A program made the translations under genes and the position numbers. Shown here piece after piece: positions 30,251 to 39,521 of a stretch of 64,000 bases of DNA. Position 1 is the stretch's first letter; each line of letters begins with the position of its first letter. Origin of the DNA: Candidatus Lloydbacteria bacterium RIFCSPHIGHO2_02_FULL_50_18 (GTDB lineage: Bacteria > Patescibacteriota > Minisyncoccia > Phycocordibacterales > UBA6899). The DNA lies in contig MHLM01000001.1 in NCBI GenBank assembly GCA_001821395.1, positions 96,001 through 160,000 of the forward strand, written 5' to 3'. The notes under the pieces are model-generated. The model searched no databases, was not told the DNA's origin, and saw only the letters and a list, made by a program, of their open reading frames with translations.

Positions 30251-30913
30251 CTAATCCTCTTTTTCTATGAGACCGTCTTTCAACCAAATCACTCGGTCCA
30301 TATACTTTCTATCCTCCGGCTCGTGGGTGATCATAATGATGGTCTGATTGAGCTCCTTGTTCAGCTTCTGAAAAAGCCGATACACCACCTCCGATGAAAC
30401 CGTGTCGAGATTTGCAGTTGCTTCATCTGCAAAGAGTATTTTGGGGCTATTAATGAGGGCCCGCGCAATCGCAACGCGCTGTTGTTCACCGCCTGACATC
30501 TCTCCAGGGTAATGATGCAGTCTCTCTTCTAATCCCACAAGCTTCAAGAGTTCTGAAGCTCGTTCCTCGTTATGCGTACCACCAAGGGCCATTCCGGGAA
30601 AATAAACATTCTCAAGTGCAGTAAATTCAGCAATAAGCGCATACTCCTGAAATACATACCCCAAATGATTAAGACGAAATGAGGTGCGCTCAGCATCAGA
30701 AAGGGCAAGAATATCAACATTATCGATGAGCACTGTGCCGGATGTCGGAATATCAAGAAGTCCCAATTGATGCAAGAGTGTTGATTTACCGGATCCACTT
30801 CTCCCCATGAGCGCGACAAACTCGCCCTTCTTTATTTCAAACGAAACCCCCCTCAACGCTCGAGTTGGAACTTCTCCGGGATATGTCTTTGTAAGATTGT
30901 TTACCTTGATCAT
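30251..30913 (-). CDS. ABC transporter ATP-binding protein (MacB/LolD-like)
   Basis: Walker A GRSGSGKSTLL, signature LSGGEQQRVAIARAL and Walker B ILFADE. Confidence 0.85.
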   Translation of the reverse strand: MIKVNNLTKTYPGEVPTRALRGVSFEIKKGEFVALMGRSGSGKSTLLHQLGLLDIPTSGTVLIDNVDILALSDAERTSFRLNHLGYVFQEYALIAEFTALENVYFPGMALGGTHNEERASELLKLVGLEERLHHYPGEMSGGEQQRVAIARALINSPKILFADEATANLDTVSSEVVYRLFQKLNKELNQTIIMITHEPEDRKYMDRVIWLKDGLIEKED

Positions 30914-30924
30914 AATGAATGTGT

Positions 30925-32157
30925 TTAACCCCAGATTGATCTTAAGATATTCTGCCTCGCTACCATTTTTGCAGGAATAAATCCCGCAAAGATTCCCGAA
31001 ATAGTAAGACTGATAATGTTGATAAAAATCTCAATGGGAGTGTACACCAAACTTGCGCTCCCAAACGGCATCGGAATTGGCCGCATTTGCAACAGTGGGA
31101 CCACAAGGGAAAAAACAATCAAAAGCCCCAGCATGGTTCCAAGAGTGACATAGAAAAGGGACTGGAGAACATACGATACCTCGATGATACTTTCCTTGAT
31201 GCCGATTGCTTTTAATATGCCAATTTGTCTGCGCTTGTTCACTGCGTTCACATAAATCATCACAAAGATTGTGATTGCGGCAACAATAATACTAATGACT
31301 GTGACAATAACCGCGATAATATCGAATGCATCAACAAGAATACCGACGGTACTAAGGCGATTCGTGTATTTTTCGATCTTTAAGTTTGGCGCTATCGCTC
31401 CAATCTGCTCGGCGTACTCATCGAGTGTTCCTCGGCCAAGATCCATTCGTACCATGATCTCTGAAGCATTGTCATAAACCGACAATATGGACTCCGCCTC
31501 CTCTGCTGAAATGAATGCAGTGCCTCCAACCGACCCACCCATGCTGATCTTAAATATTCCCCTTATCGTATACGTTCGGGTGATGCCATTGGAATAGGTC
31601 ACCTGGACTTCATCTCCGACAATGGCGCCACCAAGGTCTGATGTTTGCTTTGTCCCAAATCCGCCGGAGAGATTTGCTCCGAGTACGATCTCGTCATTTT
31701 TCAGATCATCTGGGAATTCACCAGAAACGATATTTTTATAGACCGTGAGGATCTTTTTTTCCTCCGATTGAGTCACGCCAACTACTGGTGCAGAGACTCG
31801 CTTGAATTCACCCATCTTTTCCTTGTCATACGCGAACGAACCACCCAACTGATAGTGTCGAGCCGTTCCAATAACTCCAGGAATTGTTCCGATCTGCGCA
31901 CGCACCTTCTCTTGGTTCAAGATAAATTCCTTGACCGTCGGTTCCTCTTGCGGCATGACAATAATATGCGCAGTCGAATTGTCTATCATTGACCGCATGA
32001 TCCCGTCAGAAAAACCGTTCAGAAATCCGGAGACAAACATCAAATTGAAGAATGAGAGAGATAAAATAAATACAGTGAAGACTGCCGTAGACTTATTGCC
32101 CCTCGTGATAGTTTTATAAGCAACAAAAAATGCTGTTTTCAAGTCAGTTCCATTCAT
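30925..32157 (-). CDS. ABC transporter permease (FtsX/MacB-type)
   Basis: 410 aa with an N-terminal TM, a large periplasmic domain and a C-terminal 3-TM FtsX-like region. Confidence 0.75.
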   Translation of the reverse strand: MNGTDLKTAFFVAYKTITRGNKSTAVFTVFILSLSFFNLMFVSGFLNGFSDGIMRSMIDNSTAHIIVMPQEEPTVKEFILNQEKVRAQIGTIPGVIGTARHYQLGGSFAYDKEKMGEFKRVSAPVVGVTQSEEKKILTVYKNIVSGEFPDDLKNDEIVLGANLSGGFGTKQTSDLGGAIVGDEVQVTYSNGITRTYTIRGIFKISMGGSVGGTAFISAEEAESILSVYDNASEIMVRMDLGRGTLDEYAEQIGAIAPNLKIEKYTNRLSTVGILVDAFDIIAVIVTVISIIVAAITIFVMIYVNAVNKRRQIGILKAIGIKESIIEVSYVLQSLFYVTLGTMLGLLIVFSLVVPLLQMRPIPMPFGSASLVYTPIEIFINIISLTISGIFAGFIPAKMVARQNILRSIWG

Positions 32158-32160
32158 GAT

Positions 32161-33711
32161 CTATTTTTGCTTTTTCTCAGCACCAAGAATAACCTGATCT
32201 CCATCGAAAAGACCCGAAATGATCTCGATCATACCGACATCGTTCTCGATGCCCGTATGTACCTCTGTCTCTGTCACCTGACCATCCGTAAGCGTCTGCA
32301 CTATCTTTTTTCCATCCTTGCTTTGTACGGCACTCGCGGGGACAAAAAGTGCATCTTCTGAAATTGCAGTGTTGATCCACACATTAGCCGTCATCCCCGA
32401 TCGAATGCGTTCGTCCACCTTGTCGAACAATATCGTTGTCTGATAATACACGGCACCGCCAATAATTGTCTCAACGGGATCAATAGTAACGACCTTTCCG
32501 CTAAATTCCTCATCTTCAATGGCATCAAACGTGATCCTCGCCTTCTGTCCAATACGTACATTCACAATCTTGTCTTCGACGACATTTAATTGTATTTGCA
32601 ATGCACCACCTGCGGCAAGTGACACTACAATTATGTCTGCACCAACAACCTCACCAACCTCACCCCGGACGTTCGTTACCATGGAGGATACCGGTGCAGA
32701 GATCGTCAAATCCCTCCTCTGTGCTTCTGTCCTCGTAAGGGAAGCTTCTGCTTGTATGATTTGCGCCTGATACACGGCAATATCCGACGACCTTGCCGGG
32801 GCAGTCTTTAGGGTGAGCTGATTCTCTGCGATGTGGAGGGCTGATTCTTTCATTTGGAGATTTTCTTCCGCAAGAAGAAGGTTTGACAGCGCAATGTCAA
32901 CATTCGTTCGCGCTGTGGAAATATCAGTCTTCCACTTATCGATTGTCGCTTGAGTAATCTTGGAACTTGGAGTAAGCGCGTTTACCATCAAGGCCTCATT
33001 CACAAGAAATGCCTTTACCTGTGAGGTATTTTTTTTAGCAAGAGTTGTTGCCAGAACAAGATCGCTCTCCGCTGAAACCTCCGCGAGACTTCCAGCCCAC
33101 TCATTGAGTGTCACCTCGATCCCAACCCTCGCCTCTAGTACCGCGCGCTCAAGTTGCATATCGAACGGAAAACTAAAGAGTAATTGTGGATTAGATGTTT
33201 TAGGATTATCGAACAATTGGTCAGACCTTGCTCGCACTGCGTCATCGGACCGAGTATAGGCACCTTGTAATCTATCAATCATATTCTTCTTTGCATCAAG
33301 AAGTGACTGCTCGGCATTATACACTGCAGTCTCAGAGATACTCACGTCTTCGGGTGACGCTCCACTTAATAGCTGACTTAATTTTGCCTTCTGAAGGTCT
33401 ATTCCCGCTTGCATTTCTTTTACCTGTGCATCGAGCTGAGTGGTATCTTGTTTGGCGAGAAGTTTGCCTGCTGAAATCTTGTCACCAACACGCGCATTCA
33501 AAAAAACAAGCTTGCCGCTTCCCTTGAAGCGCAAGTCAATCTGTGTTGGAGATTCGACTTTTCCACTTGCAGAAACCTCCTGAACAATATCCCCTCTTTT
33601 TGCAACCGCAAGAGTGTAGGAAGGAGCATTCAAACGCTGCATCAAAAAAATGCCGCTAATAGCCAGGGCAATCAGGGTTCCCAATGCGGTAAATAAGATT
33701 TTCTTGTTCAT
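32161..33711 (-). CDS. HlyD-family periplasmic adaptor (membrane fusion protein)
   Basis: N-terminal TM, a biotinyl/lipoyl-like beta hairpin, long coiled coils and a C-terminal beta-barrel region. Confidence 0.75.
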   Translation of the reverse strand: MNKKILFTALGTLIALAISGIFLMQRLNAPSYTLAVAKRGDIVQEVSASGKVESPTQIDLRFKGSGKLVFLNARVGDKISAGKLLAKQDTTQLDAQVKEMQAGIDLQKAKLSQLLSGASPEDVSISETAVYNAEQSLLDAKKNMIDRLQGAYTRSDDAVRARSDQLFDNPKTSNPQLLFSFPFDMQLERAVLEARVGIEVTLNEWAGSLAEVSAESDLVLATTLAKKNTSQVKAFLVNEALMVNALTPSSKITQATIDKWKTDISTARTNVDIALSNLLLAEENLQMKESALHIAENQLTLKTAPARSSDIAVYQAQIIQAEASLTRTEAQRRDLTISAPVSSMVTNVRGEVGEVVGADIIVVSLAAGGALQIQLNVVEDKIVNVRIGQKARITFDAIEDEEFSGKVVTIDPVETIIGGAVYYQTTILFDKVDERIRSGMTANVWINTAISEDALFVPASAVQSKDGKKIVQTLTDGQVTETEVHTGIENDVGMIEIISGLFDGDQVILGAEKKQK

Positions 33712-33824
33712 AAAATACACAAATAATAAAGAGTAAAAAAGACGCAGTCATTTCATTCCACTGCAATTCATCATAATATAAAATATCTTTACAAGCAAGT
33801 TACTTTATGATAAAGTAAACCAAA

Positions 33825-34280
33825 ATGGAACGTAAGGAAACGATAGAAAAACTCATCGCCTCAATACACAAGGAGACTCGGGCTGCGGGGCTTTTTGTGC
33901 ACACTATATCCGAGATCACTGGGATACATTCTACCGACATACGCTGTTTAGAATTTTTAAGTGAGGCACACTCCGCGACTGCCGGAGAACTTGGGAGGGC
34001 TACGGGGCTTACGACAGGGGCAGTCACTGCGATGATCGACAGGCTTGAAAATGGGGGCTTTGTAAAGCGCGAAGCGGATAAAAAAGACCGAAGAAAGATC
34101 ATCATCAGACTCCTGGGAATTCCGAAAAAGCTCAAATTGGTACGGGAAATGTTCTCAAAGCAAATACCCGACATTCTCGCTGAGTACAATACGGCGGAAT
34201 TACTATTGATTGCGAACTGGAACATAAAAATGGCCGCCGTATTTCACGAAAAAATAAGTAAACTCAAAGCAAAAGACTAA
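33825..34280 (+). CDS. MarR-family transcriptional regulator
   Basis: Winged HTH (TAGELGRATGLTTGAVTAMIDRLENGGFV). It is divergent from the efflux operon. Confidence 0.75.
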   Translation: MERKETIEKLIASIHKETRAAGLFVHTISEITGIHSTDIRCLEFLSEAHSATAGELGRATGLTTGAVTAMIDRLENGGFVKREADKKDRRKIIIRLLGIPKKLKLVREMFSKQIPDILAEYNTAELLLIANWNIKMAAVFHEKISKLKAKD

Positions 34281-35146: not shown

Positions 35147-35815
35147 ATGTTGATATATGCCGTAATTGGTACGCTTGTGGTCGCACTGCTCATCTTCTTG
35201 GCGTGCCGTTATTTTCGAAATCATTGCCTCGAGTGCAAAAAGAGGACTGACTGGGACAAATATGACTCCTGCAAAGCGTGCAATGCGGAGCACGAAGCAC
35301 GGGTGTCAAAGCACCGAGAAGAAATGACGGGGCGCATGATTGCGGTCACCCATGAAGTACTTGCACAATCAAGGGCAGAAACGGAAGAATTCGGTTTTAG
35401 TGATTACGATTTCCTCGATAGACCCTGCATGGTCTGTTCGCCTGGCCGGACTACTAGTCACCGAGAACTCTTTCGAGAGCGTGGTCTCGCGGGTAATCCG
35501 CAAGCATGCCAAGATTATTATTGGAACACTCACGTTCCCCTTGCAAGAAAGGCGCACAAAGATCGCGAGTCAAAGAAATTTTGGAAGCGCTGGCTGTACA
35601 TCCCACCGACAAAAGAGGAGGAGGAAGCGGTCAGTCGAGTGAGCTGGTGGCTAAAGAATGCACTCAGTGCGGGTCGTGACGATCTTGCCCAGCTACGCGA
35701 GTACCGGACGTATCACGAAAAGCCTGACCATTGGATGGACATGACTACCAAACAACTCATGGAGCGCCGACTCTCGCGCGCAAAGAAGGCACTAGATTTA
35801 AATATTGATCGGTAA
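35147..35815 (+). CDS. Hypothetical membrane-anchored zinc-ribbon protein
   Basis: N-terminal TM helix, then CLECKK...CKACN. A terminator follows at 35826-35850. Confidence 0.5.
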   Translation: MLIYAVIGTLVVALLIFLACRYFRNHCLECKKRTDWDKYDSCKACNAEHEARVSKHREEMTGRMIAVTHEVLAQSRAETEEFGFSDYDFLDRPCMVCSPGRTTSHRELFRERGLAGNPQACQDYYWNTHVPLARKAHKDRESKKFWKRWLYIPPTKEEEEAVSRVSWWLKNALSAGRDDLAQLREYRTYHEKPDHWMDMTTKQLMERRLSRAKKALDLNIDR

Positions 35816-35850: not shown

Positions 35851-35898
35851 ATACAAAATATCTTATGCCTCTCGGTCATCCGAACCGATTCTTGATAG

Positions 35899-35969
35899 CT
35901 GCGGGACTTGGAGTCGAACCAAAATTGACGGATTCAAAGTCCGCTGTCCTACCATTAGACGATCCCGCA
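35899..35969 (-). tRNA. tRNA-Gln (anticodon UUG)
   Basis: Manual fold: acceptor UGCGGGA/UCCCGCA with U1-A72 (typical of bacterial tRNA-Gln), anticodon loop CU-UUG-AA, and T-arm UUUGG-UUCGACU-CCAAG. No encoded CCA. Confidence 0.8.
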
Positions 35970-36046: not shown

Positions 36047-36451
36047 TCACGAATCGCACAATGTCCATTTTGCAGGATTATTCGTATGCTTTGATTGCGT
36101 AATTACCGCCCATTGTGGATCACCATGATTGTGAACGGGGGTAATCGTCTGCAGTGTGTATTCACCCATTTTCTGACTCATGTCTGACCTAAAAACATCA
36201 TCATTGGTGATAGTGCTCGGGTCCCTCTCCGGATGAATACTCGCAAAGAATTCCCTTCGCCAGCCGCGGAGGTCCCCTGTCACAATTGTTCTCTGTACAA
36301 AGATGAATTCGGGACCTGCATTGCAAATGAAATTATAGCGGTGGCCCGTCCCGTCTTCGATCAGGGAAGCATAGGGCGGCAGATTCAGGAAGATGTCTCT
36401 ATTGATCACGGGGTACTCCCCTAGGATGGTGTTTGCATCTCCAGAAACCAT
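36047..36451 (-). CDS. Hypothetical protein (paralog of 36546-36920)
   Basis: Shares the blocks FVQRTIVTGDLRGW and AVITQSKHTNNP with the neighbouring ORF. An alternative TTG start at 36475 is possible. Confidence 0.5.
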   Translation of the reverse strand: MVSGDANTILGEYPVINRDIFLNLPPYASLIEDGTGHRYNFICNAGPEFIFVQRTIVTGDLRGWRREFFASIHPERDPSTITNDDVFRSDMSQKMGEYTLQTITPVHNHGDPQWAVITQSKHTNNPAKWTLCDS

Positions 36452-36545
36452 AATACCAAATATGTATTTTGGCAACTATATATAAAAAATTCACCGCCGA
36501 AATTCGGAGGTGAATGGAGGGTGAAAAGTAAAAAATTAAGAGTGC

Positions 36546-36920
36546 TCAACTCTTAAACCAATCGCGGGGATCGTTCACCATGAACTTCTGAGTGACGATC
36601 ACCGCTTCCGGATTTCCTTCTCGATCACGGACGATTACTTCAACATAAAAAGCACCATAATTTTCCCGCACATCCATCTTGAGCATATCCCCTTGTTTCA
36701 AAGCACGAGGATCTGCATTCACGAGACAAGCATTTTCTTGCTTCAGCCAACCGTTAAAGTGGCGGATAACAATAGTGCGCTGTACATACAGCCGCTGCTC
36801 GTCGATGAACGCCAGGACCGCAAGTTCTTCTCGAGTACCGATTTTACAAATAGTATCGAGCGCAAATACACCGCGAAATGATTCCATCTTTGCCTCTTCT
36901 TGAGGTGGAACAAACAACAC
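36546..36920 (-). CDS. Hypothetical protein (paralog of 36047-36451)
   Basis: YVQRTIVIRHFNGW and AVIVTQKFMVNDP blocks. A terminator hairpin lies at about 36489-36520. Confidence 0.5.
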   Translation of the reverse strand: MLFVPPQEEAKMESFRGVFALDTICKIGTREELAVLAFIDEQRLYVQRTIVIRHFNGWLKQENACLVNADPRALKQGDMLKMDVRENYGAFYVEVIVRDREGNPEAVIVTQKFMVNDPRDWFKS

Positions 36921-36958: not shown

Positions 36959-37996
36959 CTACTTCCCTTCTCCGGCAACTTTAATAAGCGCTAATTCTAT
37001 CGGGAGCGTCGGTACCGTACTAAATCCGATCTCACGGGTCGCATCGAGAAATGCATAGAGTACATGAGAGTTGATCTTCTTTTCGGGAGAATTTGCCAAT
37101 CGCAACAGAAAAACGAGATCATCAGGAGTGAACTCATCTTTGTAATGACCTTCGGCGTTTTTGTCATAACGCAGCATGAGCGTCGCACGCATCTTTTCAA
37201 GAATGAGTCTCAAGTAGACCTTCATATCAACGTGTTCATCTTTGGCACTTTGTATCGCCGACAAACCGTCGGAAATATTTCCTGACTCGATGGATCCCAG
37301 AACGCGGTTCACAAGATCATGCGTCGGTGCTCCGACGATGCGAGAAACGGTGTCGACATCAAGCCGTCGGTCCTTCGCGGCTACCAGCACTTTTTCAAGT
37401 ACCGAAAGCGTATCGCGAAACGAGCCGTCGCCAAACATCGCAATGATGTCTGCTGAAGGACTGTCGATTGTTACCTGCTCCTTTTTCGCCGTATCGAGCA
37501 CATATTTTTTTAATTCATCGAGAGTCGGATCACGAAACACAAACGACTGGCATCGTGAGATTATGGTATCGGGGAGCTTATCTCTATCGGTGGTCGCAAG
37601 AATAAATACCGCATGCGCGGGAGGTTCCTCCAGAGTCTTGAGGAGTGCATTGAATGCTTCCTTGGTGAGCATGTGTACCTCATCGATAATGTAGACCTTG
37701 TACGGGGATTCGAATGGCATCGAGCGTACCGACTCACGAAGCTCGCGAATGTCGTCAATAGAACGATTTGAGGCACCGTCCATCTCATAGAGATCCGACG
37801 GTTTACACCCAATTTCGGCGGCAAAGATACGCGCAACGCTTGTCTTGCCCGTTCCTCGGCCTCCCGAAAAAAGATAGGCATGAGAAATAGATTTATCCTC
37901 AATCTCACGCAAGAGTATAGAAACAACCTCGTGCTGTCCCTGCACGTCTTCAAACTTACTGGGTCTATATTTCCGATATAAAGCGAGCTCGCTCAT
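36959..37996 (-). CDS. dnaX: DNA polymerase III subunit gamma/tau (short form)
   Basis: YRKYRP, Walker A GGRGTGKTSVARI, and a DEVHML box. Confidence 0.85.
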   Translation of the reverse strand: MSELALYRKYRPSKFEDVQGQHEVVSILLREIEDKSISHAYLFSGGRGTGKTSVARIFAAEIGCKPSDLYEMDGASNRSIDDIRELRESVRSMPFESPYKVYIIDEVHMLTKEAFNALLKTLEEPPAHAVFILATTDRDKLPDTIISRCQSFVFRDPTLDELKKYVLDTAKKEQVTIDSPSADIIAMFGDGSFRDTLSVLEKVLVAAKDRRLDVDTVSRIVGAPTHDLVNRVLGSIESGNISDGLSAIQSAKDEHVDMKVYLRLILEKMRATLMLRYDKNAEGHYKDEFTPDDLVFLLRLANSPEKKINSHVLYAFLDATREIGFSTVPTLPIELALIKVAGEGK

Positions 37997-38104
37997 GTGA
38001 AGAGTATAGCCTGTCTGATACACCTTCTGCAAAGGGATATGCTCGGTCGCGGGGGTGCAACAAAATAGCCCCGACCGTACTGGCGGGGCTATGTTGATGA
38101 AATA

Positions 38105-38323
38105 CTAACAAACGTCAGGGCCGTGGCTTCCGCAACAAAGCTCACCGAGCGCCTCATTCGTTGACGCCTGAATAGCGTCTTTGTGACAGCATGATTCTGC
38201 AGTTTTGCCGCACGGGCATTTTCCATGCTCATCAAGCACCACTTTTTTTTCGTCAGCGGAACATGCGGCAACGCCCTTTTTATCAGACCCTGCACATGCG
38301 CAATCTCCTCCGCAGCCTCCCAT
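38105..38323 (-). CDS. Cys-rich metallothionein-like small protein (72 aa, 13 Cys)
   Basis: MGGCGGDCACAGSDKKGVAACSAD...GKCPCGKTAESCCHKD...ELCCGSHGPDVC. Its start overlaps the stop of the upstream gene (TAATG). Confidence 0.55.
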   Translation of the reverse strand: MGGCGGDCACAGSDKKGVAACSADEKKVVLDEHGKCPCGKTAESCCHKDAIQASTNEALGELCCGSHGPDVC

Positions 38324-38817
38324 TATGATTTTTTCTTCTTAGCTGGAGCCTTCTTGACCGACGCCTTTTTAACAGAGACTTTCTTGGCAACACCTTTCTT
38401 TGCGACGACCTTTCTTACCGTCTTCACTGCTTTCTTTACAGTTTTTTGAACCGCCTTCTTGGCGACTGATCCGCCCTTCTTTGCGGTGCGTGTAAGCTCG
38501 CGCTCGACGTTCTTCCAGTTCTTTTTGAGTTCCACTGCAGCACGATCGAGGTCACTCGCCTTGATCGAGGTCATATTCCCGTAAACCTCTGTCGCGTTAT
38601 CAATGATGGCTGCGTATGCCTTCTGATCAAGCTTCTTCATTTTCTTTGCCGCCTTCATGACATCAGCCTCCAGGTCTCCAACCCACTTTGCCGCCTTTTT
38701 GCGATGAGCTCCTGCATCCTTACTGCCATAAAAATAATACCCCGCTCCGGCCGCGGCCGCTGCTGCGAGCCCCAGACCGACTCCGACTGCTACTTTCTGC
38801 TTATTGACCTTTGCCAT
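38323..38817 (-). CDS. Lys/Ala-rich basic protein with histone H1-like KKAVKK repeats and an N-terminal hydrophobic segment
   Basis: The C-terminus reads AKKAVQKTVKKAVKTVRKVVAKKGVAKKVSVKKASVKKAPAKKKKS. The N-terminus is VAVGVGLGLAAAAAAGAGYYFY. Confidence 0.55.
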   Translation of the reverse strand: MAKVNKQKVAVGVGLGLAAAAAAGAGYYFYGSKDAGAHRKKAAKWVGDLEADVMKAAKKMKKLDQKAYAAIIDNATEVYGNMTSIKASDLDRAAVELKKNWKNVERELTRTAKKGGSVAKKAVQKTVKKAVKTVRKVVAKKGVAKKVSVKKASVKKAPAKKKKS

Positions 38818-38847: not shown

Positions 38848-39153
38848 CTACACACCAGCGTCATGCTTATGCTTGCCGCGGGCTTTTTTATTACGTGATA
38901 CAACAGAAGCGAAAAAATCACTCACGTGCTTCACCTTCATTCCCTCTTCGCGAACCCTTGCTCGCAATATCCGGATATCATCACGAATATCGTTGCTCTC
39001 CAAAGTGACATTTTTCATCACCTCGTCAAAGCTTTTGAGAATTCGGATCACATAGAATAATGCAACGATGAGCAATACTCCGAGAGCGATGACCACTCCC
39101 GTAGTTGCAACGAAGAACACATCCATCTTGAAAAAATCATCCATATGATGCAA
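38848..39153 (-). CDS. Small membrane protein (hypothetical)
   Basis: One TM helix (VFFVATTGVVIALGVLLIVALFYVI) followed by a charged tail. Confidence 0.5.
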   Translation of the reverse strand: MHHMDDFFKMDVFFVATTGVVIALGVLLIVALFYVIRILKSFDEVMKNVTLESNDIRDDIRILRARVREEGMKVKHVSDFFASVVSRNKKARGKHKHDAGV

Positions 39154-39185
39154 CTATTATATACCACCCCGCTTTCAGTGCAAAC

Positions 39186-39208
39186 AAAAACCCCTCAACA
39201 ATGAGGGG
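39186..39208 (-). terminator. Rho-independent terminator
   Basis: cccctcaacaatgagggg with a T-run on the minus strand. Confidence 0.65.
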
Positions 39209-39454
39209 TCAGCGATGAATGATGAGGCGCAGGGCGGCTTTGATCATGACCAGCCCCATGATACATGAGAGGAGCGGAATGATGAGCATAAACGAGAATT
39301 TGATGTCGTAGATCACTACGATAGAGAAGTAGGCACACCCGGCAAGCAAGTGCAGCATGCCCCAGATCATGAGACAAAATCCCGCCTTACGCCGAGACTT
39401 TTCAAGGCGGAACGCACGCACGAAGGACTCTGCGAGGTCAACAACGAGCTTCAT
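39209..39454 (-). CDS. Small membrane protein (hypothetical)
   Basis: Two TM helices. The start was chosen at MKLVVD. Confidence 0.4.
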   Translation of the reverse strand: MKLVVDLAESFVRAFRLEKSRRKAGFCLMIWGMLHLLAGCAYFSIVVIYDIKFSFMLIIPLLSCIMGLVMIKAALRLIIHR

Positions 39455-39521
39455 TGAATGAACTCCTTCTACGAATACGGATATCTGTTCATAGCATAGT
39501 ACGAGTGGTACTAATGTCAAT

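Follow-up and report, generated by a model that had tools for sequence, protein, structure and literature searches.

In the stretch of DNA analyzed here (64,000 nucleotides, positions 96,001 to 160,000 of contig MHLM01000001.1 of Candidatus Lloydbacteria bacterium RIFCSPHIGHO2_02_FULL_50_18; hereafter the window), we identified on the minus strand a compact unit of three genes, in which the gene of a small membrane protein (tm) is followed by that of a YtxH-like protein and then by a gene encoding a Cys-rich protein of 72 amino acids. The Cys-rich open reading frame (ORF) is a real gene under purifying selection, since it is intact, keeps its Cys residues, and shows low ratios of nonsynonymous to synonymous substitution rates (dN/dS). 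The family to which its product belongs is new and unannotated, and of a general kind that is known, namely small proteins that are rich in Cys and probably bind metals. Its features suggest that the protein may act as a metallothionein-like buffer for metals or oxidants, produced in a fixed proportion to the YtxH-like protein; we rate the chances of this reading as a whole at about even, and those of metal binding taken alone as better than that.

The Cys-rich protein (MGGCGGDCACAGSDKKGVAACSADEKKVVLDEHGKCPCGKTAESCCHKDAIQASTNEALGELCCGSHGPDVC) has 11 Cys residues, located at positions 4, 8, 10, 21, 36, 38, 45, 46, 63, 64, and 72, and not 13 as an earlier note on this DNA had counted. The CxxxC motif occurs once and the CxC and CC motifs twice each, as that note had in part described, whereas the CxxC motif it also listed is absent. 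The protein has a mass of 7 kDa, a Cys content of 15%, two His residues, no Phe, Trp, or Tyr, and, in the metal-free state, a net charge of -4, and it is encoded by the only ORF of at least 45 amino acids in the window with a Cys content of at least 15%. In the family as a whole (n = 54), the mean contents are 12.4% for Cys and 0.8% for Phe, Trp, and Tyr, and the lengths range from 56 to 102 amino acids. This Cys fraction is at the low end for metallothioneins, near that of the plant and bacterial ones. The Cys-rich and YtxH-like proteins encoded in the window have identical counterparts among the hypothetical proteins of a Candidatus Lloydbacteria metagenome-assembled genome (MAG) from the Rifle groundwater (Parcubacteria, candidate phyla radiation or CPR), the Cys-rich one being the NCBI hypothetical protein A2845_02710.

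Homologues of the Cys-rich protein were collected in several ways. A word-indexed search yielded three clusters of homologues, and an exhaustive hidden Markov model search of 1.8 billion cluster representatives yielded 27 (representatives at 50% identity), all of which are stand-alone proteins of 56–92 amino acids. When 185,579 species, each represented by one genome, were scanned for the motif, 16 Cys-rich loci were identified, which belong to Lloydbacteria, Paceibacterota, or Patescibacteria MAGs, except for one that is labelled Saccharibacteria. Further homologues came from loci fetched via the neighboring gene, which brought the total to 54 distinct sequences, confined to a single clade. 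The consensus of this unannotated family reads MxGCGGxCxCA..C..VxLDxxGKCPCGKxxxxCCHKD..NxAxxELCxPHxGKHxC.

Residues C36, C38, K40, C45, and C46 are invariant among the 54 sequences, and C4, C8, C10, C21, P37, G39, and H47 are kept in at least 93% of them. The conserved core thus consists of eight Cys residues (4, 8, 10, 21, 36, 38, 45, and 46) and His47, each present in at least 93% of the sequences. The Cys blocks are conserved, and the linkers between them are variable and free of Cys. The C-terminal Cys/His module, NxAxxELCxPHxGKHxC (ELCEPHNGKHVC in one homologue), occurs in about 80% of the 54 sequences and is missing from seven short members. It was also lost from one of two near-identical strains (L029:3447-3701 and L030:3447-3701), the YtxH-like genes of which are 99% identical: a deletion of about 62 bp removes the module, and the frame runs into the downstream sequence. 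Because of this deletion, the C-terminal module seems to be dispensable or prone to loss.

The Cys-rich ORF was found to be intact in every related locus examined, and since it is conserved and in frame in the relatives, the proposal of a coding gene at this position withstood the comparison. Most of the pairs available for dN/dS analysis were saturated, and four were informative (dS below about 0.6 or a near-complete alignment). In three of these four lowest-dS pairs, the dN/dS of the Cys-rich gene was 0.09, 0.09, and 0.27, that of the upstream YtxH-like gene being 0.07–0.12. The fourth pair, L029/L030, gave an omega value of 0.87, which is distorted by the above deletion and does not reflect relaxed selection. 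Within the clade, the YtxH-like neighbor has diverged to about 50% identity, and the Cys-rich ORF and its Cys residues are still kept in all 30 lineages.

All three genes lie close together. The Cys-rich gene occupies positions 38105–38323 of the minus strand, with its TAG stop codon at 38105–38107, and its open frame contains no alternative start codon. The YtxH-like gene (38323–38817, minus strand) encodes 164 amino acids, and the last base of its TAA stop codon is the A of the Cys-rich ATG, so that the two codons share one base in the sequence TAATG (38321–38325, minus strand). Both ORFs and their overlap are as previously proposed. The pairing of these two genes was real but incomplete, since the gene at 38848–39144 (minus strand), directly upstream and part of the same conserved unit, had been overlooked; it encodes a single-pass membrane protein of 98 amino acids weakly resembling DUF948/YoxC. 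Among 32 distinct loci, the Cys-rich start codon overlaps the upstream stop codon in 9 (TAATG in 8 and a 4-nt overlap in one, L060), follows it with a gap of 1–2 nt in 14, and lies 35–80 nt away from it in another 9; an overlap or a spacing of at most 2 nt was therefore found in 23 of the 32.

The predicted signals flanking the unit are consistent with a single transcript ending after the Cys-rich gene. A terminator-like hairpin (38065–38092) followed by a U-run (TTTGTTGC) occupies positions 38057–38092 of the minus strand, begins 12 nt beyond the stop codon of the Cys-rich gene, and has a fold energy of -24.2 kcal/mol (z = -2.8). Comparable hairpins with unrelated sequences are present 3' of the Cys-rich gene in about 13 of the 33 other loci examined. 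The fact that hairpins differing in sequence follow the gene across loci suggests that the Cys-rich gene ends the transcript and that dnaX, the downstream neighbor (36959–38032, minus strand), is transcribed separately; the latter gene was identified as that of the clamp-loader ATPase by the Pfam families DNA_pol3_delta2 and AAA and by synteny. Upstream of the unit, a consensus match to a promoter (TTTGCA-17-TATAAT; 39156–39184, minus strand) ends 11 nt before the first ATG, the number of promoter-like sites in the region being no higher than in shuffled sequences. A second terminator-like hairpin with a T-run is predicted at 39189–39210 (minus strand), between dus and the unit. A strongly hydrophobic ORF of 103 amino acids (39209–39520, minus strand), which has no Pfam match, takes up the spacer that separates dus from the unit's first gene, and its 3' end shares 2 nt (39209–39210) with this hairpin; the equivalent spacer is shorter in L001, where no gene was called. 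No riboswitch or other RNA family of Rfam was found in or near the unit.

The order of the genes is well conserved. All 15 genome loci selected by the motif and having upstream sequence carry the tm, YtxH-like, and Cys-rich genes in this order, followed by dnaX in the 13 loci with enough downstream contig; the order is kept in L023, although ribosomal protein genes replace dus upstream. The homologues sought thus exist, and the adjacency holds as well, since the YtxH-like gene lies directly upstream in every motif-found locus with upstream sequence. When the YtxH-like proteins were placed in a neighbor-joining tree, the 30 Cys-positive loci all fell into one clade, within which no losses were detected: the Cys-rich gene occurs in every lineage sampled, and always between the YtxH-like gene and dnaX. 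This distribution argues for one acquisition of the Cys-rich gene followed by strict retention.

The YtxH-like protein belongs to a large family with at least 497 homologues, all of them in Parcubacteria. Its members have an N-terminal segment (GVGLGLAAAAAAGAGYYFYG) and a helical domain (...ELKxNWKxVE...), both conserved, and end in a Lys-rich tail. The N-segment, which is hydrophobic and rich in Gly and Ala (residues 9–30, VAVGVGLGLAAAAAAGAGYYFY; 38728–38793, minus strand), is the most conserved part of the family. We infer from its sequence that it is inserted into the membrane, where it would serve as an anchor; AlphaFold2 models a helix at residues 15–29 with low confidence. Further helices are modelled at residues 35–58, 65–80, 87–99, and 101–114, and the predicted local distance difference test score (pLDDT) of residues 35–114 is about 75–83. 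The tail (residues 113–164; 38326–38481, minus strand) is disordered and polylysine-like, is rich in Lys, Ala, and Val, consists of short imperfect repeats encoded by tandem repeats of 15 and 21 nt, and was modelled with low confidence. It contains 21 Lys in 52 residues, out of a total of 38 Lys in the 164 residues of the protein. A Lys-rich tail of variable sequence and length is present throughout the family, including the members with no Cys-rich neighbor.

This architecture, in which a hydrophobic helix at the N-terminus precedes an amphipathic helical region, matches that of YtxH proteins (about 100–160 amino acids). PF12732 (YtxH) was detected in 5 of 33 homologues, with a best E value of 7.7e-6, and two other homologues come with a precomputed assignment to PF12732 in the database. 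On these grounds, the 164-residue protein can be regarded as a member of a large Parcubacterial family distantly related to YtxH. The earlier note had likened it to histone H1, having correctly recognized the hydrophobic Gly/Ala segment and the Lys-rich tail. The likeness holds for the Lys/Ala composition, and one homologue is named "histone H1/5" in the automatic annotation of the Joint Genome Institute (JGI), but it does not extend to identity: a linker histone or an Hc1/Hc2 protein was ruled out, as no Pfam histone family matched and the NCBIfam Hc2 model gave an E value of 0.85 and 9.8 bits against a cut-off of 135. What the tail shares with those of histone H1, Hc1/Hc2, and AlgP is a low-complexity sequence rich in Lys, Ala, and Val with short repeats, whereas the YtxH-like protein has no globular H1 domain and carries its tail on a helical domain that is presumably anchored in the membrane.

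The product of the first gene (NCBI model A2845_02720, 98 amino acids) has a single membrane pass and a conserved helical cytoplasmic part, and two of its homologues are named "YoxC" in the JGI annotation. In about 75 of the 80 metagenome loci fetched via the YtxH-like protein (L024–L105), the YtxH-like gene is immediately preceded by one that encodes a single-pass membrane protein of about 95 amino acids. Since so many loci have the pair, the tm and YtxH-like genes form a core that is conserved across Parcubacteria, far beyond the Cys-rich clade. In the Cys-negative loci, 48 of which are distinct and have enough downstream sequence, the gene following this pair encodes in 8 cases a membrane-anchored DsbA-like protein (Thioredoxin_4) with a CPFC-type site. 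A gene of this kind was observed after the pair in L024:3049-3759, L025:3001-3756, L043, L044, L066, L072, L074, L091, L094, L099, and L103. Apart from two outliers, these cases fall into a single clade of the tree of YtxH-like proteins, and the placement of the DsbA-like gene may reflect either function or inherited synteny.

The Cys-rich protein was then compared with known families. No match was found in Pfam or NCBIfam with the window protein at E ≤ 1, nor in Pfam with 29 members of the family at the same threshold, which includes the bacterial metallothionein family PF02069 (BmtA/SmtA); the family profile matched no PDB sequence at E ≤ 10. The profile was also scored against seven metallothionein sequences, each along with 200 composition-preserving shuffles. 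SmtA, MymT, human MT2A, and Arabidopsis MT2a scored no better than their own shuffles, SmtA reaching -12.8 bits, which is lower than 199 of its 200 shuffles, and MymT -3.9 bits, which is at the level of the shuffles. Yeast Cup1 and Drosophila MtnA were the only two of the seven which exceeded all 200 shuffles; they did so via a local KCPCG...CC motif, with absolute scores of about 0 bits, and because of these scores there is no evidence of homology to Cup1 or MtnA. This likeness is better described as convergence on a short Cys motif, giving a weak hint towards Cu(I).

The proposal that the 72-residue protein is metallothionein-like has therefore fared differently according to the kind of evidence. 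In size, the protein and its family are within the range usual for metallothioneins (less than about 10 kDa in the general definition of the Kagi/Binz type), and in composition they have the Cys-rich motifs and the few or absent aromatic residues that characterize these proteins; the mass of the window protein, its Cys content, its CxC and CC motifs, and its lack of aromatics all agree with the proposal, but every test of family membership that was run gave a negative result. No paper discussing a metallothionein of these bacteria was found in the literature.

According to the metallothionein-like reading, the Cys-rich protein would be cytoplasmic, since it has no signal peptide, and its eight core Cys residues and one His would bind metal ions in the form of a bridged metal-thiolate cluster. 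The spacing of the ligands in CxC, CC, and CxxxC motifs points to a cluster of this kind rather than to separate zinc fingers; M3Cys9 in the beta-domains of metallothioneins and Zn4Cys9His2 in SmtA are examples of bridged clusters. The optional C-terminal module, C-x2-H-x3-H-x-C, might provide an additional, smaller mononuclear Cys2His1-2 site. Translational coupling would keep the Cys-rich protein in a fixed proportion to the YtxH-like protein, and the peptide might buffer Zn- or Cu-type metals, thiol-reactive oxidants, or both, inside a membrane-associated stress module. It is pure speculation that the peptide could dock on the tail of the YtxH-like protein, because the metal-loaded form would be strongly anionic and the tail, with a charge of +21, is polycationic.

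Several observations weigh against this reading. The AlphaFold2 model of the Cys-rich protein is poor (pLDDT 56) and matches no solved PDB fold, and no homology to any metallothionein family was detected, either with Pfam at E ≤ 1 or with the profile against the seven metallothioneins. Several residues that are not metal ligands are near-invariant (D31, G34, K35, P37, G39, K40, N56, E61, and L62), a pattern that is at least as easily explained by a folded domain with a specific interaction as by a generic metal sponge. Because all the Cys-positive loci form one clade, the conserved synteny may largely reflect common descent and not functional coupling, and the Cys-rich gene is linked to dnaX as invariably as it is to the YtxH-like gene. 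Beside the unit, there is no gene of a metal transporter or metal sensor and no riboswitch. The assignments of the first two genes are also weak: PF12732 was not detected in the window protein itself (E ≤ 1), and only the above 5 of 33 family members match it, while the DUF948 (PF06103) match of the 98-residue protein is below the threshold (E 0.048–0.052, 14 bits against 37.2), and only 4 of 14 members match at all. Lastly, the genes following the tm and YtxH-like pair in the other loci vary widely (an HD hydrolase, an ECF sigma factor, TrpRS, a PyrF-like protein recognized by eye, and others), so that a thiol protein in the third position is a notion drawn from few cases.

The near-invariant residues and the strict spacing are also what would be expected of a structural zinc-cluster adaptor, in which two or three structural Zn ions would hold a fold that binds a partner (DnaX, a nucleic acid, or the YtxH-like protein). 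The sole stretch of the Cys-rich protein modelled with moderate confidence (pLDDT about 75), residues 25–50 around VxLDxxGKCPCGK...CCH, is consistent with such a fold. In the case of DnaX as the partner, the Cys-rich gene always lies directly upstream of dnaX, and the DnaX proteins of the Cys-positive clade (L001–L065) have only 0–1 Cys in the 55-residue window from Walker A (2 in the truncated ORF of L026), where those of E. coli and Bacillus have a four-Cys zinc module. On the other hand, a terminator-like hairpin stands between the Cys-rich gene and dnaX both in the window and at about 13 other loci, and it is to the upstream gene, not to dnaX, that the Cys-rich gene is coupled. Motifs such as CxC and CC would be unusual in a mononuclear zinc finger, and the C-terminal module is absent in seven short members and deleted in one strain variant. 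We consider this explanation rather unlikely.

Another explanation, which we regard as distinctly improbable, is that the protein is a metal-free thiol-disulfide redox protein or a sacrificial thiol buffer standing in for the thioredoxin-fold proteins encoded after the pair, BrxC in Bacillus and the DsbA-like proteins in other Parcubacteria. The third position is occupied by thiol-redox proteins in ytxGH-brxC and in 8 of the 48 Cys-negative loci, and CPR bacteria are not known to have a low-molecular-weight thiol system, which was also counted in its favor. However, the Cys-rich protein has neither a thioredoxin fold nor a CxxC active site, and ten conserved Cys and a conserved His exceed what a redox couple needs, the conservation of the His being suggestive of metal ligation. 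The DsbA-like proteins, moreover, are membrane-anchored with an extracytoplasmic domain, and hence not equivalent to a cytoplasmic peptide, and they come mostly from one clade.

A small iron-sulfur protein, in which the eight core Cys would hold one or two Fe-S clusters serving electron transfer or sensing, is very unlikely. The eight conserved Cys do lie within about 45 residues, and the lineage is anaerobic, fermentative, and rich in Fe-S proteins, which speaks for this possibility; but neither the CxxCxxCxxxCP pattern nor any other Fe-S pattern is present, no match to Fer4 or another Fe-S family of Pfam was found in the 29 members at E ≤ 1, CxC and vicinal CC are atypical ligands of cubane clusters, and there are no redox-partner genes nearby. 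Nor was any homologue found to be annotated as a ferredoxin, an annotation that, according to the earlier note, would have spoken against its reading. As for a spurious or decaying ORF with no function, the gene is short, unannotated, confined to one clade, and has lost its C-terminal module in one strain variant via the deletion of about 62 bp, but its conservation, with intact Cys in all 30 lineages of the clade and dN/dS values down to 0.09, effectively refutes this explanation.

Two other candidates were ruled out: a lipoprotein or secreted peptide, as there is neither a signal peptide nor a lipobox before Cys4, and the precursor of a ribosomally synthesized and post-translationally modified peptide, as no maturase is encoded nearby and the neighbors are housekeeping genes.

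Some other features of the region were recorded along with the unit. Downstream of dnaX, the ORFs at 36047–36475 and 36546–36920 (both on the minus strand) are adjacent paralogues (25% identity, E 4e-12), neither of which belongs to a Pfam family. An ORF of 222 amino acids (35147–35815, plus strand), likewise with no Pfam family, encodes a hydrophobic segment at the N-terminus and, after it, CxxC...CxxC, which may be a zinc ribbon; it ends 83 nt upstream of a tRNA-Gln gene (35898–35969). Farther away, a MarR-family regulator (33825–34280, plus strand) is divergent from an HlyD-type membrane-fusion protein (32161–33720), which forms along with an FtsX-type permease (30925–32157) and an ABC ATPase (30251–30913) what appears to be a MacAB-like efflux set. 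This regulator and the efflux set (30251–34280) are 4–8 kb away from the unit and show no sign of linkage to it.

A broader proposal would be that the peptide founds the first metallothionein family of the CPR and forms the soluble arm, scavenging metals or oxidants, of an ancient membrane-associated stress module of the YtxG/YtxH type common to Firmicutes and Parcubacteria, in which the third thiol protein (BrxC in Bacillus, a DsbA-like protein in some Parcubacteria, or the peptide in the Lloydbacteria clade) is interchangeable and the peptide docks on the Lys-rich tail. We hold this proposal to be improbable, but if it were true, the function of YtxG and YtxH could be approached for the first time, their roles having been unknown for decades. 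The biological function of bacterial metallothioneins has been investigated only in those of the SmtA and MymT kinds (PMC7387436). If a third, unrelated family existed and were restricted to CPR bacteria, ultra-small organisms living in groundwater and glacier-fed streams, it would widen the view of how minimal genomes handle metals or thiol stress. The coupling with the YtxH-like gene, along with the near-universal presence of the tm and YtxH-like pair in Parcubacteria, would offer a comparative route to the function of YtxG and YtxH.

Among the known systems, the BmtA/SmtA metallothioneins (PF02069), which form a Zn4Cys9His2 cluster in a zinc-finger-like fold, have several features in common with the Cys-rich family: both are small, of about 55–80 amino acids, and cytoplasmic (as presumed here), with about ten Cys and two His as candidate ligands, CxC motifs, and few aromatics. 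In both, some residues other than the ligands are conserved as well, as would be expected of a defined fold more than of a random coil. The Cys-rich family differs from them in that it shows no sequence relationship, has another Cys spacing, and is not adjoined by a sensor gene of the smtB type. With the Cu-thioneins Cup1 and MtnA, it shares the sequence KCPCG, a Lys/Glu-rich spacer, and CC, the lengths of the spacers being different. Zn3Cys9 domains, in which nine ligands, largely of the CxC type, could form a triangular three-metal cluster that doubles as a structural or binding domain, also occur in proteins other than metallothioneins, such as the pre-SET domain and the CXC domain of MSL2/tesmin, which are eukaryotic chromatin domains located within large proteins. 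These provide no more than a structural analogy for the way in which eight Cys and one His might be employed; the Cys-rich family matched no PDB sequence or fold.

The unit as a whole is best compared with ytxG-ytxH-brxC (ytxJ), a general-stress operon of Bacillus subtilis under the control of sigmaB and sigmaH, the products of which are a DUF948 protein, YtxH, and a monothiol bacilliredoxin (PMC8113031). A proteome study showed that YtxH is strongly induced by a copper ionophore (PMC10140759). The two systems have in common the order of a small membrane protein with a DUF948-like architecture, a YtxH-type protein with an N-terminal hydrophobic helix, and a small thiol protein, and in neither system has a function been assigned to the first two of these. 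The Lloydbacteria genes are likewise co-directional and tightly spaced, with a predicted promoter and predicted terminators, the homology of genes 1 and 2 being weak. The third gene of the Lloydbacteria unit, in contrast, encodes a peptide with ten Cys unrelated to BrxC and not a monothiol bacilliredoxin with a thioredoxin fold, and the long Lys-rich tail is a feature of the Parcubacterial YtxH-like proteins. CPR bacteria are not known to make bacillithiol. The view that this gene arrangement is not a described operon thus holds for the Cys-rich third gene, which is unlike BrxC, but not entirely for the first two genes, which resemble the ytxG-ytxH pair (PMC8113031). The Lloydbacteria unit may accordingly be said to resemble ytxG-ytxH-brxC by analogy, with weak homology in the case of the first two genes and not as a demonstrated equivalent.

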